Shown in pieces: positions 49,211-60,321 of a stretch of DNA of 64,000 nt. Source of the DNA: Eledone cirrhosa (taxonomy: Eukaryota); the NCBI GenBank assembly GCA_964016885.1, contig OZ024742.1, positions 139,128,001-139,192,000 of the forward strand. Direction: 5' to 3'. The notes under the pieces were generated by a model. It was not told the DNA's origin, ran no database searches, and saw only the letters and a list, made by a program, of their open reading frames with translations. The translations under genes were made by a program, and so were the position numbers. The first letter of the stretch is position 1, and each line of letters begins with the position of its first letter.

Positions 49211-49234
49211 CTGCTGTTGGCGTTAAAAGTACAG
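49211..49234 (+). CDS. 24-nt phase-1 micro-exon (xAVGVKST)
   Basis: tctctgtatttacag|CTGCTGTTGGCGTTAAAAGTACAG|gtaagt. Confidence 0.8.
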
Positions 49235-49712
49235 GTAAGTAATCATTATATAACAATACACATATTTTGTCCATATGAATTATTTTACAAGGATAGCAAG
49301 CAAATTTATATTCGTTGGTCGATTACAATCTTTGAAAAATCAAATAAGGATTGCTTTATAAAATGTATAATGAAGCTAATGATAACAGAAGCTGAAATAC
49401 TTGAAGCCCTCAGCGGCTGTACGATGAACATATCACTCGGCTACGGTGGTCTCCTCTATGCGGTTTACATAGACATGTTAGATATGTTTTGCAATGATTA
49501 TGATAGTCTTCTCTATGAGTCAAACATAGACATGCTAGACTTGTTCTCCAAACTCCTTCAACCTGCCTGCAGCACAAAGCATTAATACCGGGAATTTCTC
49601 TGTTCTGTAATTCGGGGCGTAGTAAAGGTGATATATATTAATAAATGATCTAAAAGATATTATTTAATTTTTCATTATCACCGTAATGATATATATTTAT
49701 CTGTATTTACAT

Positions 49713-49730
49713 CGGCTGTTTCTACTAAAC
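49713..49730 (+). pseudogene. 18-nt micro-exon copy, both splice sites non-canonical (xAVSTK)
   Basis: ctgtatttacat|CGGCTGTTTCTACTAAAC|ataagtactcatg. Confidence 0.55.
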
Positions 49731-51057
49731 ATAAGTACTCATGATATAATAATATCTATTTTTGTCCATAAAGATAAATTATGTTTGTTACAAGCATAGC
49801 AGGTAAATTTACAGTCATTGATTTGTTACTATCTTTGATAAATCAGAAAAGAAATGTTTTATAAAATGTTTAATGAAACTTACTATAACAGAAACTGAAA
49901 TATTTGCACACCTGGCCGGTTGATCAAGCGGCAAATCACCCGGTTACGATGGCCTCCTTTCTGAGGTTTACATAGACAAGCTAAACTTATTCTCCGATGG
50001 TTATGATGGTCTCCTCTATGAGGTTTAAACAGACATGCTTAATTTGTTCTGGGCTTAATCCAGAGAAGTCAGTATGTCTCCAGCTCACTGCTTGAGTGTC
50101 AAATCCATGCAGTTCAACTGCTTTGACAAACACTGGACGGACGGGACAATGACATTTGTTTGGGTCGTCTGGTTTTGTCTACACCTCCAGGTGGTTAAGG
50201 ACTGGGATGAGGTAGCATGGACATACACTTACATACACACAAAGGCATTGCTTTGATATGCACCCTTGTTTCCTGCTATTAATGTTGTCTGTCACTCTTT
50301 TAAGTTGTGAAATAGACTGGTTAGCTACGCACGCAGCTGACACATTTCAGCTCGCTTCTGTATTGCTATATAATGGTTGATCGCATTTAAAGTCCGTTAA
50401 AGGTTCTTGGCACTACCATTGTTACCATCGCTTTCCTCTAGCCTTGGAGACATAAACCGAATGCTACCATTCTATTTTATATCAATGTGAACTGCTATTT
50501 CTAAAGACCATCTTCTCACCCCTTGATAATTTGTGTGTGCGACACGTTGGCTGGGTTCTTCTGACAGGAAAGAAAAGATTGATTCTGTTTAGCTTCCTGT
50601 CCCCACGTAAAATGTGTAAATCAGTGGCTAGTTGAGAGATAGAGTCCTATCGGTTGCCAGTTGCTAATAGCTTTACCGCGTCAGTCGTCACAAACAGTCA
50701 TGGCCGGCATAGACTGGTCTTAGGATTCTGACGATCTATTGGTTATTGATTAGGCGATACCCGCTGATCAAGCTGCATAAGCCGATTGTGCATTGTTGCA
50801 TAATATATGCAGACAGATGGTGCAGTGCACCTTACTGCTGCCGTAGTGCGGCAGAAACTCGAGTCCGGGTACCTTATAGGCACATGTTTTAAGTGCGTTG
50901 TGTTGAAGCAAATAACTTTGTGTATACTCTGGGAATGTATCTTACATTGCCCATGGAGTGCGCTGAGATACAACCGGTACTGGCATTGATAAATATGCTG
51001 GGTCCGTCAACCCTTGTTATATATATATATATATATATATATATATATATATATATA

Positions 51058-51187
51058 TATTTATTAAAATAACAGATTAAAGTTTAAGCAAAGAATCGCT
51101 GGTTTCACCCTTAACGGGATCTTCTGAAACTTAAGGGTGAAAGCAGCGATTCTTTGCTTAAACTTTAATCTGTTATTTTAATAAATA
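51058..51187. repeat. Near-perfect hairpin (~57-bp arms) of a pLTR-like repeat inserted in (TA)n
   Basis: 51058-51114 vs 51131-51187, one mismatch. The sequence is homologous to ~17970-18040. Confidence 0.85.
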
Positions 51188-51347
51188 TTTGCTCTACGGT
51201 TCTTATATATTTGATATATATTTATCCTTATCGAGCCCTCTTTGGATTTTAGTCTTCAAGTTTATTATTATTACTATATATATATACTTATATATATATA
51301 TATATATATATATATATATATATATATATATATATATATATATATAT

Positions 51348-51447
51348 ATATTGTAATACTTTGGGAGGGTCATGTTGCCAATAAGAAACACACGCACGCG
51401 CGTGTGTTTCTTATTGGCAACATGACCCTCCCAAAATATTACAATAT
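51348..51447. repeat. Near-perfect palindrome (~48-bp arms)
   Basis: ATATTGTAATACTTTGGGAGGGTCATGTTGCCAATAAGAAACACACGC ... GCGTGTGTTTCTTATTGGCAACATGACCCTCCCAAAATATTACAATAT. Confidence 0.9.
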
Positions 51448-56888: not shown

Positions 56889-56912
56889 CTGCTACTACCG
56901 TTGAAAGTACAA
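56889..56912 (+). CDS. 24-nt phase-1 micro-exon (xATTVEST)
   Basis: tctctgtatttacag|CTGCTACTACCGTTGAAAGTACAA|gtaagt. Confidence 0.8.
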
Positions 56913-57869
56913 GTAAGTAATCATTATATAACAATACACATATTTTGTCCATATGAATTATTTTACAAGGATAGCAAGCAAATTTATATTTATTGGTCGA
57001 TTACAATCTTTGAAAAATCAAATAAGGATTGCTTTATAAAATGTATAATGAAGCTAATGATAACAGAAGCTGAAATACTTGAAGCCCTCAGCGGCTGTAC
57101 GATGAACATATCACTCGGCTACGGTGGTCTCCTCTATGCGGTTTACATAGACATGTTAGATATGTTCTGCAATGATTATGATAGTCTTCTCTATGAGTTT
57201 AACATAGACATGCTAGACTTGTTCTCCAAACTCCTTCAACCTGCATGCAGCACAAAGCATTAATACAGGGAAATTCTCTGTTCTGTAATTCGGGGTGTAG
57301 TAAAGGTGGTTGAGAAAGGGGTTGTTATTGATAATATCCAACCCATAAATGTGCTTCACATACAGTTCAATACTTTGACCAATTTGCTAACAACCTGGTT
57401 GGCATTAGACCTGGAAATTGTGTTAGAAGATTGGCAGACCAGCGAGTTCCCGGACTGGTCTATACAGTACTACCTCCACATCAGGTGATATATGGTAGAG
57501 AGTGTAGGGATTAAATCTGGCTTCGGTGGGGTTCTCGTGAAATTGGATCAATCGAAACTTTTCCATATTGTCCAACATCGATACCTAGAGAGTGTTCTCA
57601 AGGTAGCTGGATCTGGTCACGTGTTCAGAAGCTGGATCGTTGTAATGCGCAGCGGCATTACACAGTTCAAAGTAATTGACCACCTATCTTAAGTGTTCTA
57701 TATCAATCACTTCTTACAACAAGAATGACATCTCCCCTCCTCTTGAAAGTTCTGTATCTCGAGCCAGAACTGCAGAAGCTGGAACATTTGTTGGAATTTT
57801 GTAATTATATATTATATTGTAATTATATATTATTATAACCTTAATAATATATATCTCTTTGCATTACAG

Positions 57870-57893
57870 CGACTGTTTCCACTGGAAGTACAT
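57870..57893 (+). CDS. 24-nt phase-1 micro-exon (xTVSTGST)
   Basis: tctctttgcattacag|CGACTGTTTCCACTGGAAGTACAT|gtaagt. Confidence 0.8.
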
Positions 57894-58075
57894 GTAAGTA
57901 ATCATGACATAATAATATACATTTTTTTGTCCATTTTACAAGGATATCATGTGAATTTATACTCATGGTTAACTTTATGACAATATTTTGTGTTTTTCAT
58001 ATTATTCAATTCATAAAATTAACGAAAGTAGCAATATTTATTACCGTAATAATATATCTCTTTCTGTATTTACAG

Positions 58076-58099
58076 CGAAAGATCCAGTTCAAAACAATT
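58076..58099 (+). CDS. 24-nt phase-1 micro-exon (xKDPVQNN)
   Basis: ctttctgtatttacag|CGAAAGATCCAGTTCAAAACAATT|gtaagt. Confidence 0.78.
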
Positions 58100-60297
58100 G
58101 TAAGTAATTCTCATATATCAATACACATTTTACTTGATAGAAATATATTATTTTTCACTCATAAAATCTACCTTTGAATTCATTGATCTATTAATATCTT
58201 TGATAAAACAGTAAAGAATTGCTTAATAAAATTGTGTATATATATATATATATATGTGTGTGTGTGTTGCAATGTGATATATTTATTTTAATAATAAGAG
58301 TAACGATGTTAGTTCCATCTTAAATTATATTAAGTACATCGTCTGTATTAGCTAACAGCTGTATATCAGCTAGGTCTCCCTTTAAAGTATACATGTTTAT
58401 TCAATGTTGGATCTGTTTCTTGACTCGCAACCTCCTCCTTTGCTGTTCAACATTTGACCATTTTGTTTTGTGGAATGTGTCTTGCAGTAGACAAAGAAAG
58501 GCAACGTTACCATGGGTATATCTGCTGTAACCGGATTATTTGATGCAGGTGTGGATGTAAATGGATTTGCTATATTTCTTGAATGACTTGCTTAAATTTA
58601 AGGTTAGACAACTGTCAGGGTCTAACGTTAAAATTAAGCCACTCCTAAAAATAAATATGAACTTTTCAGTTATAACAAATATCTATAGTTTAGTGGATTG
58701 TAATATTCATTCATTGACAGCAAGCCACAGATTGTATAGCTAAGCATCGGACTTCTAAACCTGTGAGGTCTCCGAGCCAATACCTCGTGTGTCTATGTTG
58801 TAATTCAACCCTATACGGGATTCCATAAAAAGAATTCGTTAGATGTGTTTGAATTTATGCGTGTTGTTTCCACCTTCGGTTCTACCACTATGTCAGCTTC
58901 CTTTATACTATAAGCAATTGGTTTATATGTTAAATATTCTTATGTTCAGCCATACGGATGATGACAACAATGGCGCTTATGGATATACCCTAAAGTTGCT
59001 GATAACTACATTTTCGCGTGATAGTTTTAGTATTTCACAGATCGTATTGCAACTTTACTTATGAGGCTGCGCCAAGTAAGGTTCTTTTAGTGAGGCTGTA
59101 TACACTATATATTATTCTATCTACGAAAGAGTAACGGAAAGTCAACTGCCATGTGTGTGAGATATAGAATGGACTCTCATATCTAGAACGACGCATGTTC
59201 TTCCAGTTGTTTGAGGAACTGAGCGATCTACTCGGCAATATTTCGATTTAAATATAACGGAATTGAAAGAATAAATTTAACAACATCCGTACATAATCAA
59301 GTAGCTTTGGTATCAAGGTGCAATGGGCCGAAACACATACTCAGTTACTCCACCGCCTGTTGCTCAAAGCTTTTTCTGTTTGTAATGTGGATTAGACGGC
59401 ATTGATACAATAGCAATACGAAATTAAGCGAATTGTTCTCGTGTTCGTTCCGCAGAGAGAGGTTGTACGTATATCAAACGCAGACACCTGATTTTATCCA
59501 CAATCTATCTATCTATGTATCTATCTATCTGTCTGTCTGTTTGTCTGTTTGTCTGTTCTGTCTGTTTGTCTATCTATCACTCTCTGAATTTAGTAGTTCT
59601 AAACTTGTGACACGTGAGCTCTTTCTATCTATCTATCTGTCTAACTATCTATCAATCTCTGCATGAAGTGGTCCTAAACTTGTGACACATGAGCTCTTCT
59701 CAGACAGGAAGGAAGTCAAAACTAACCATTGTTAAGGAACACGATGGCGGGAAATTGAAAACTTGAGTATATATATATATTGATATATATATATATATAT
59801 ATATATATATATATATATATATATATATATATCGAATTCCGTATCTCTCGAATTTTGGCTGAGTGCTCTAATTATTGACGGCTATTTCTGGACTCCAGAA
59901 ATAGCCGTCGAAACGGTTTGAGTTCTGCCGTCGGGTTTAAACTTTCTCATATATATATAAATATATATATATGCGGTAATTTGATATATCATTTAATTAA
60001 AAAAATCGACGTTTCTAAAATTATATTGAATTCATCAATCTGTATTAGATGGCAAATGTATATAAGCTTGGACTTCTATTACAGTATACATGTATGTTTA
60101 TGTAATATAATATTTATAAATGAAGGGAATGCTATTTATGATAAAATATCAGTCGATCTGTCTTATTTAAATTTTTTTAATACATAATGTTAAGAATTAT
60201 GGTAACTCTCAATAATGTATATTGAACTGGTATTATGGAAAATAAACAAAATAATTTTTAATCATTACCATAATAAGATATATCTCTGTATTTACAG

Positions 60298-60321
60298 CTA
60301 CTGTTACCGTTGAAAGTACAA
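60298..60321 (+). CDS. 24-nt phase-1 micro-exon (xTVTVEST)
   Basis: tctctgtatttacag|CTACTGTTACCGTTGAAAGTACAA|gtaagt. Confidence 0.8.

Follow-up and report, generated by a model that had tools for sequence, protein, structure and literature searches.

Duplicated 24-nt micro-exons that diverge faster than their introns in a tandem cluster of predicted mucin-like genes

Why should the coding cores of duplicated cassettes differ more than the hundreds of intron bases that surround them? This question is raised by a 64,000-nt stretch of a 3.0 Gb genome (C3:139128001-139192000, hereafter the window, with positions counted from its first base), in which a first-pass annotation had singled out four paralogous 24-nt exons. 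We analyzed the window together with 400 kb beyond it (464 kb in total, containing no N). The exons belong to a locus of three tandem genes, termed A, B, and C, which we consider likely to encode a glycosylphosphatidylinositol (GPI)-anchored, mucin-like surface protein built of 8-residue micro-exons, with positive selection diversifying the exons and recombination homogenizing the introns.

Divergence of micro-exons and introns

The four 24-mers were located on the + strand at 49211..49234, 52806..52829, 56889..56912, and 60298..60321, where they encode the 7-codon cores AVGVKST, AVPSKST, ATTVEST, and TVTVEST, respectively. All four are flanked by TCTCTGTATTTACAG on the 5' side and by GTAAGT on the 3' side. 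The first-pass annotation had counted 4 (exons 1 and 2), 6 (1 and 3), and 3 (3 and 4) mismatches per 24 positions, and these counts were correct; the remaining pairs differ at 5, 7, and 6 positions. When 117 nt of upstream and 390 nt of downstream intron were aligned (507 columns), pairs of copies showed 3–7 differences in 24 exon positions versus 12–20 in 507 intron positions, and the Fisher test that had been suggested as a check separated exon from intron in 6/6 pairs (p ≤ 0.036). Across the four copies, 9/24 exon columns were variable versus 26/507 intron columns (p = 5e-6). Intron divergence was as sparse as had been judged by eye, with five variable columns in the densest 24-nt window lying entirely within intron. 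Every exon difference fell at codon position 1 or 2, as had also been claimed, when read in the phase-1 frame, in which a split codon begins at exon position 24.

The core duplicated cassette (first copy at 49094..49630, + strand), which consists of the exon with ~115 nt of upstream and ~390 nt of downstream intron, is 95–98% identical among the four window copies and is repeated 48 times in the locus. We refer to the exons of this cassette as main-type; 48/48 are 24 nt long, and 26 distinct 24-mers occur among them. For the comparison of the 48 copies, flanks were masked where indels break homology (18/48 partly masked). Codon positions 1 and 2 varied in 16/16 columns, with 28 derived states (1.75 per site). 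Third positions varied in 2/8 columns (0.25 derived states per site), and introns in 93/505 columns with 98 derived states (0.19 per site; 0.23 within 50 nt of the exon and 0.19 beyond). The excess of positions 1 and 2 over introns was about ninefold (p = 2e-16), and third positions did not differ from introns (p = 0.67). Non-synonymous changes made up 29/30 derived states (p = 6e-4), and the mean proportions of differing sites were 0.346 for non-synonymous sites (pN), 0.012 for synonymous sites (pS), and 0.033 for introns (p).

Each gene showed this pattern alone, the states at positions 1/2 versus position 3 numbering 10 v 0 in gene A, 21 v 0 in gene B, and 27 v 2 in gene C. The diversifying selection proposed in the first-pass annotation is thereby supported: the excess is limited to codon positions 1 and 2, and third positions evolve at the intron rate. 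The locus also holds an 18-nt exon that has mostly lost its splice sites (splice-dead, or dead, exons hereafter). Its flanks carried 46 states on 390 sites and were no faster than the main-type introns, so by the standard of the array the latter are not unusually slow. These sequence comparisons fit positive selection better than a hot spot of mutation, slippage, or the import of sequence from old paralogs, and the array provides its own neutral control for the selection signal. A 131-codon open frame that runs from the exon into the intron (49190–49582) was rejected as coding because it had no Pfam match, its variable columns were spread evenly across codon positions (18/23/18), and it was open in 31/48 copies.

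The cassettes are mosaics of one another. Incompatible site pairs amounted to 47/136 within exons and 222/1378 in the downstream intron. Main-type exons were matched by position between genes B and C, and 10/12 pairs were identical; one of the other pairs differs at six exon bases and at intron positions −30 and −29, another differs at three bases within exon offsets 6–11, and the alternative blocks of both pairs occur elsewhere in the array. As these blocks represent two events, a Fisher p value computed on them overstates the evidence. The micro-conversion put forward in the first-pass annotation is seen in the block swaps and the incompatible site pairs, but nothing shows that it is targeted, and it reshuffles variants without accounting for their amino-acid bias.

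Splice-dead exons apparently take part in the exchange. The 18-nt exon (49713 and 53308 in the window, and 32 other copies) was dead in 33/34 copies through the lesions AG to AT, AG to GG, and GT to AT, corresponding to three states at four sites (p = 0.012). The sole intact copy lies in gene C (C3:139514099). It has the intact acceptor of one dead haplotype and the intact donor of another, and apparently arose by recombination between the two. On a larger scale, sequence at the junction of gene B with the spacer resembles gene C up to a 272-nt interval and gene A after it, and the change takes place in a stretch where genes A and C are homologous (38 differences in 1.1 kb). A switch within homology is expected from unequal crossing-over and is hard to produce by a mis-join.

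Three tandem genes and their predicted product

The three genes span ~390 kb in total. Gene A is predicted to open at 36004..36052 (+ strand) with a coding exon of 16 codons, counting the ATG, and one further base (phase 1), followed by GTAAGT. The window holds part of the gene (36004..64000, + strand), and the final coding exon is predicted 14.9 kb beyond the window end (C3:139206864-139206931). That exon is in phase 1 and would encode 21 uncharged residues ending in a hydrophobic stretch before TGA, with AATAAA 303 nt after the acceptor. Both the first exon and the extent of the array, which runs 350 kb past the window end, are additions to the first-pass annotation. Exon numbers differ between the genes: gene A has 7 micro-exons with intact AG/GT, gene B (C3:139263497-139352959) has 22 with 11 dead, and gene C (C3:139400058-139553374) has 33 with 21 dead. 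All three genes share the same first and the same last coding exon without a single difference, and likewise the 190 nt preceding the ATG (35814–36003 in the window).

Altogether 97 micro-exon-like segments were catalogued, 62 with AG and GT and 35 dead, in addition to three truncated copies; doubtful among the 62 are two with a GAG acceptor, for which there is another AG 2 nt upstream. Besides the 48 main-type exons and the 34 copies of the 18-nt exon, the locus contains older types, whose near flanks differ by 17–29% from those of the main type. The intact exons are all 24, 18, or 15 nt long (62/62) and stop-free only in phase 1, the numbers of exons with stops being 0 in phase 1, 4 in phase 0, and 48 in phase 2. 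The first and the last coding exon are likewise in phase 1. The family is restricted to this locus. A query of the genome with a single cassette gave 40 scored matches among 97 candidates, all inside 370 kb; a pattern search placed 56/59 matches there, with 3 in the control, and this genome search found no second locus beyond chance.

The predicted first exon has Lys at residue 2 and a hydrophobic core (best 9-residue Kyte-Doolittle mean 3.18), and from this pattern of hydropathy and charge it is predicted to encode a signal peptide. Proteins with a GPI anchor follow a two-signal rule, with hydrophobic signals at the N- and C-termini (PMC10216265). Hydrophobic signals were found at both ends here, and the tail is uncharged. 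The last exon (best 9-residue hydropathy 2.29, no charged residue) is predicted, from hydropathy and general rules, to be the GPI-attachment signal. By such rules a small attachment residue lies about 10 residues ahead of the tail; residue 7, which would sit at a fitting distance, is S, C, or N in 53/60 intact 24-nt exons and is a candidate site. The last residues of the exon diversify too (3 states at 2 sites, p = 0.008), which fits multi-exon products.

With all intact exons included, the predicted products of genes A, B, and C have 91, 214, and 300 residues. Their arrays contain 30–48% S+T, 35–45% A+P+V+G, and no aromatic residues, giving a predicted Ser/Thr/Ala/Pro/Val-rich, GPI-anchored, mucin-like protein. 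Among the roles guessed at in the first-pass annotation (immune, venom, gamete, or microbe interface), a secreted venom agrees less well with the predicted signal peptide and GPI-type tail than a protein of the cell surface would. Cys is distributed unevenly, with 16 in the full predicted product of gene C, 2 in the array of gene B, and none in that of gene A. The 5' part of gene C (C3:139416000-139483000) contains a run of 14 main-type exons, all with Cys at residue 7, and these residues could allow disulfide cross-linking.

Weighing the explanations

The mechanism we propose would begin with unequal crossing-over, adding and removing cassettes of 1–6 kb and duplicating whole genes as well. 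Favoured point mutations that change residues would then build up at about nine times the rate of intron changes, and short conversion tracts would carry whole or partial exons between cassettes. Since every exon has a length divisible by 3 and is in phase 1, the frame would survive whichever exons are joined, and the products would most likely be multi-exon isoforms that vary in length. The Ser/Thr-rich chain would carry O-glycans, and the change would be driven by a partner that it binds, be it a microbe, a parasite, a gamete, or a neighbouring cell.

A pattern of this kind could also arise if old, selected exon variants were shielded while constant conversion reset the introns, in which case the introns would be alike and the exons would not be fast. 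Recombination is pervasive in the flanks, and the pattern of the Schistosoma mansoni SmPoMuc genes has been explained in that way (PMC2576457), as has that of spider silk genes. Shielded variants should, however, have carried about 11 linked synonymous states where one was seen (p = 1e-4), and third positions are not frozen, as 11/40 differ between the main-type majority and five older-type exons; we regard this explanation as unlikely. Even less probable is a mutational process acting on the exon cores without selection on the protein, such as (NCT)n slippage, RNA-templated conversion, or import from older paralogs. It would account for the dead 18-nt exon, which also varies solely at positions 1 and 2, and for the B/C swap that lies entirely within the exon (offsets 6–11). 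Slippage is at odds with the finding that 8/30 derived bases copy the base 3 nt away, where 20/72 possible changes would do so, and with zero length variants in the 48 main-type exons. The older-type codons GGA (residue 6), AAT (residue 7), and TCC (residue 4) never occur in main-type exons, contrary to import, and the donor of the other B/C swap was likely DNA, since that swap extends to intron positions −30 and −29. A sequence-blind hot spot, moreover, would strike third positions. Most improbable of all is an artefact of mis-joined alleles, of haplotypes, or of a satellite merely resembling exons. In its favour, genes B and C are near-identical in their 3' parts (157 differences in 55,773 non-exon sites), and the 3'-flank depth in read run X1 was 6.6 for the A-type and 5.2 for the B/C-type, when 1:2 would be expected with both B and C present. 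Against an artefact stand the absence of N from the 464 kb, the B-to-spacer junction, which fits unequal crossing-over, and short-read contigs that carry the exon variants of the array. These contigs come from three read runs of one sample and one study, possibly the assembled animal, in which both 3'-flank versions are present; the runs behave as DNA, with contigs crossing the acceptor into the intron and no spliced joint. The short-read depth of the cassette flank was 26–44 times that of one outside contig (~26 expected), a ratio too noisy for copy number. Codon-periodic variation and the avoidance of stops would be unexpected in a satellite. An assembly origin of the four-exon pattern, raised in the first-pass annotation as a possible refutation, is unlikely; the pattern holds in gene A alone, and the finding is independent of whether B and C share one chromosome.

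The exons might alternatively be spliced in a mutually exclusive manner, as in Dscam, with one micro-exon per transcript supplying both the Ala of the signal-peptidase site and the GPI site of an anchored peptide of 5–6 residues. Such a product is suggested by 61/62 intact exons, which start with CT or CG and would form Ala after the final G of the first exon, and by the GPI-permissive residue 7 in 53/60, although both features may be inherited from one ancestral exon. A search of the outer introns, limited to four ends of 1.5 kb each, showed no docking complementarity to the cassette above that of shuffled sequence (p 0.37–0.63), nor was there a stable fold across the exon (z 0.0–0.2). Against steric exclusion, no intron that separates two intact micro-exons in gene A is shorter than 182 nt, and residues that would be lost with the GPI signal also diversify. 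We give mutual exclusion only a small chance.

Several considerations weigh against selection on a surface protein as the explanation. The pS estimate is carried by only ~7 synonymous sites, and the derived-state counts ignore repeated hits and treat copies that are not independent. In the dead 18-nt exon, five states occur on 12 position-1/2 sites and none on six third-position sites, with 46/390 in the intron (p = 0.018). This pattern may be a relic from before silencing, or it could mean that a non-selective process concentrates change in exon cores. Phase 0 reads the changes as 15 synonymous and 15 not. The signal peptide and the GPI tail were called by hydropathy and general rules rather than by a predictor, and exon use, frame, and protein are all predictions from DNA alone. 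A weak homology search with a 40-residue open stretch around the first exon returned three candidates, none with E ≤ 10; the last exon is too short for such a search. As for phase 0, that reading (Leu-rich, half synonymous) was rejected: 4/62 exons have stops in it, the flanking exons are in phase 1, and synonymous sites would need to be ten times faster than introns.

Known systems and other features of the locus

The closest architectural parallel is SmPoMuc, in which a 27-nt exon and its flanking introns form tandem units, up to ~20 per gene, with intron parts >93% identical within and between genes, tandem gene clusters, and ectopic recombination (PMC2576457). The present locus resembles it in the tandem duplication of a small exon (24 nt) with near-identical introns (48 cassettes, mean intron p 0.033), in exon differences kept by selection, and in a tandem gene cluster with ectopic recombination. 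SmPoMuc differs in having few repeat types (r1, r1', r2, and r3), purifying selection according to its authors, and 13 further exons (PMC2576457), whereas the present locus has 26 distinct main-type exons with a large non-synonymous excess, lacks any further domain, is predicted to end in a GPI tail, and belongs to a free-living animal rather than a parasite. Its 15-exon structure was not found, as a single predicted 22-codon last exon follows the array. The likeness is one of architecture only, and the comparison was made by description, not by sequence homology.

Micro-exon genes (MEGs) encode a signal peptide and have ~80% of their coding sequence in symmetric exons of 6–36 nt (PMC5825161). 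They show high dN/dS and recent duplication, and some are membrane-anchored and predicted to be O-glycosylated (PMC5825161, PMC4350168, PMC10526429). The share of coding sequence in micro-exons, by predicted exons, is 58% in gene A, 82% in gene B, and 87% in gene C; the MEG value of ~80% is reached by B and C, and A falls short. Symmetric exons in the same phase (62/62) are a further likeness, and the hydropathy and charge pattern of the predicted first exon would fit a signal peptide. Alternative splicing has been demonstrated for MEGs, but the locus described here is known from DNA alone. The aromatic-rich motifs that follow the signal in MEGs (PMC10526429) are impossible here, as the arrays have no F, W, or Y. 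MEGs are apparently restricted to platyhelminths (PMC4350168), and the host is likely an octopod; the two were set apart by motif description, not by alignment. On the features tested, the locus is a member of neither the SmPoMuc nor the MEG family.

A MEG-like build in a free-living mollusc would show convergence and hint at an unknown cephalopod cell-surface arms race. It is conceivable, though rather doubtful, that the locus is an independent octopod diversity generator of the MEG kind, in which subsets of up to 33 selected 8-residue exons are joined between a fixed signal peptide and GPI signal, and the repertoire is renewed by conversion and by a reservoir of splice-dead pseudo-exons. Every exon subset would then be a valid surface molecule, and one pseudo-exon copy would have been revived by recombination. 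If true, this would amount to a combinatorial surface code in cephalopods for immune, gamete, or self recognition.

The exons of modular spider silk genes are of kilobase scale. These genes share tandem exon-intron units with introns more homogenized than exons, but their exons are said to be under purifying selection and encode a secreted structural protein (as cited in PMC2576457). In snake serum and venom families, non-synonymous (KA), synonymous (KS), and intron rates reveal accelerated exons after tandem duplication, but whole genes were duplicated there, compared with an 8-residue exon inside one gene here (PMC6609765). Exons outrunning introns are an already known pattern (PMC6609765; silk as cited in PMC2576457). 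Sponge GranRep and Ciona YYD are small tandem families that likewise combine a signal peptide with short imperfect repeats and are polymorphic; GranRep is predicted to be O-glycosylated, and both occur in immune-type cells of aquatic invertebrates (PMC11703226). These repeat proteins are a possible functional parallel, by analogy.

The exon-intron contrast is real and statistically strong, and the locus departs from known systems in its host, in the GPI tail predicted for it, in the count of distinct exons, and in the pseudo-exon dynamics. The three tandem genes for glycophorins A, B, and E, with splice-dead pseudo-exons revived by conversion, may be a parallel. CD24, CD52, and the Trypanosoma cruzi mucins combine a signal peptide, a Ser/Thr-rich core, and GPI, caseins have duplicated 24-nt exons, and Dscam has arrays of duplicated alternative exons. 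None of these is known to combine a one-repeat-per-exon array, a GPI tail, and such a non-synonymous excess. In the cephalopod literature searched, which did not extend to subscription journals and supplements, no such gene was found described. Annotation based on long exons easily overlooks genes of this build, and the array offers a natural setting in which to study the interplay of conversion, selection, and exon silencing at the 24-nt scale.

Beyond the four exons of the first-pass annotation, the window contains further members of the family, all on the + strand. The segment at 43817..43840 is a predicted older-type 24-nt pseudo-exon with a dead acceptor (CAA). The 18-nt paralogous pseudo-exon at 49713..49730 has lost both acceptor (CAT) and donor (AT), and its counterpart at 53308..53325 has an intact acceptor and a dead donor (AT). 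Two older-type 24-nt micro-exons with intact AG/GT lie at 57870..57893 (core TVSTGST) and 58076..58099 (core KDPVQNN). The last intact micro-exon of gene A (61282..61296) is 15 nt long, 9 nt shorter than its paralogs and in frame. It is followed at 61479..61487 by a truncated copy of the 58076 exon, which keeps its acceptor and of which the remainder is now a CA/TA/TG microsatellite; this lesion is also present in genes B and C. Truncated upstream-flank copies of the cassette without an exon were observed at 41140–41380 and 48250–48410, and 16 listed flank-motif matches in the locus do not lead into a main-type exon.

The window is AT-rich and packed with microsatellites and fragments of long interspersed nuclear elements (LINEs). 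A 45-bp satellite (331 copies) occupies 4–14899, and ~2-kb arrays of it also lie upstream of genes B and C, indicating that the satellite was duplicated along with the genes and is variable in length. Upstream of gene A, an inverted repeat of 325 nt (91%), with another pair nested inside it (34037–35444), lies ~560 nt before the ATG and looks like a foldback element or miniature inverted-repeat transposable element beside the predicted promoter, and a TATA-like run is present at 35940–35949. The intron ahead of the first main-type exon contains a LINE (44900–47700) with a 527-codon open frame (RVT_1). For a LINE reverse transcriptase inside the gene, the best named match is from Octopus bimaculoides (72% identity), and the next species-named match is from a ctenophore (58%). 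An octopod host is thus likely rather than proven, since elements of this kind can pass from one host to another. An element just before the LINE, without a Pfam match, reads to us like a mariner-type fragment, and a short interspersed nuclear element in the locus presumably resembles those of octopuses. A Pfam scan of 41/214 open reading frames around the locus gave retroelement-type domains and weak matches without a passing stretch, and no tRNA genes were found there. Elsewhere in the genome, a 60-nt piece (C18:17783707-17783766) is 100% identical to the coding end of the last exon and the start of the predicted 3' untranslated region.

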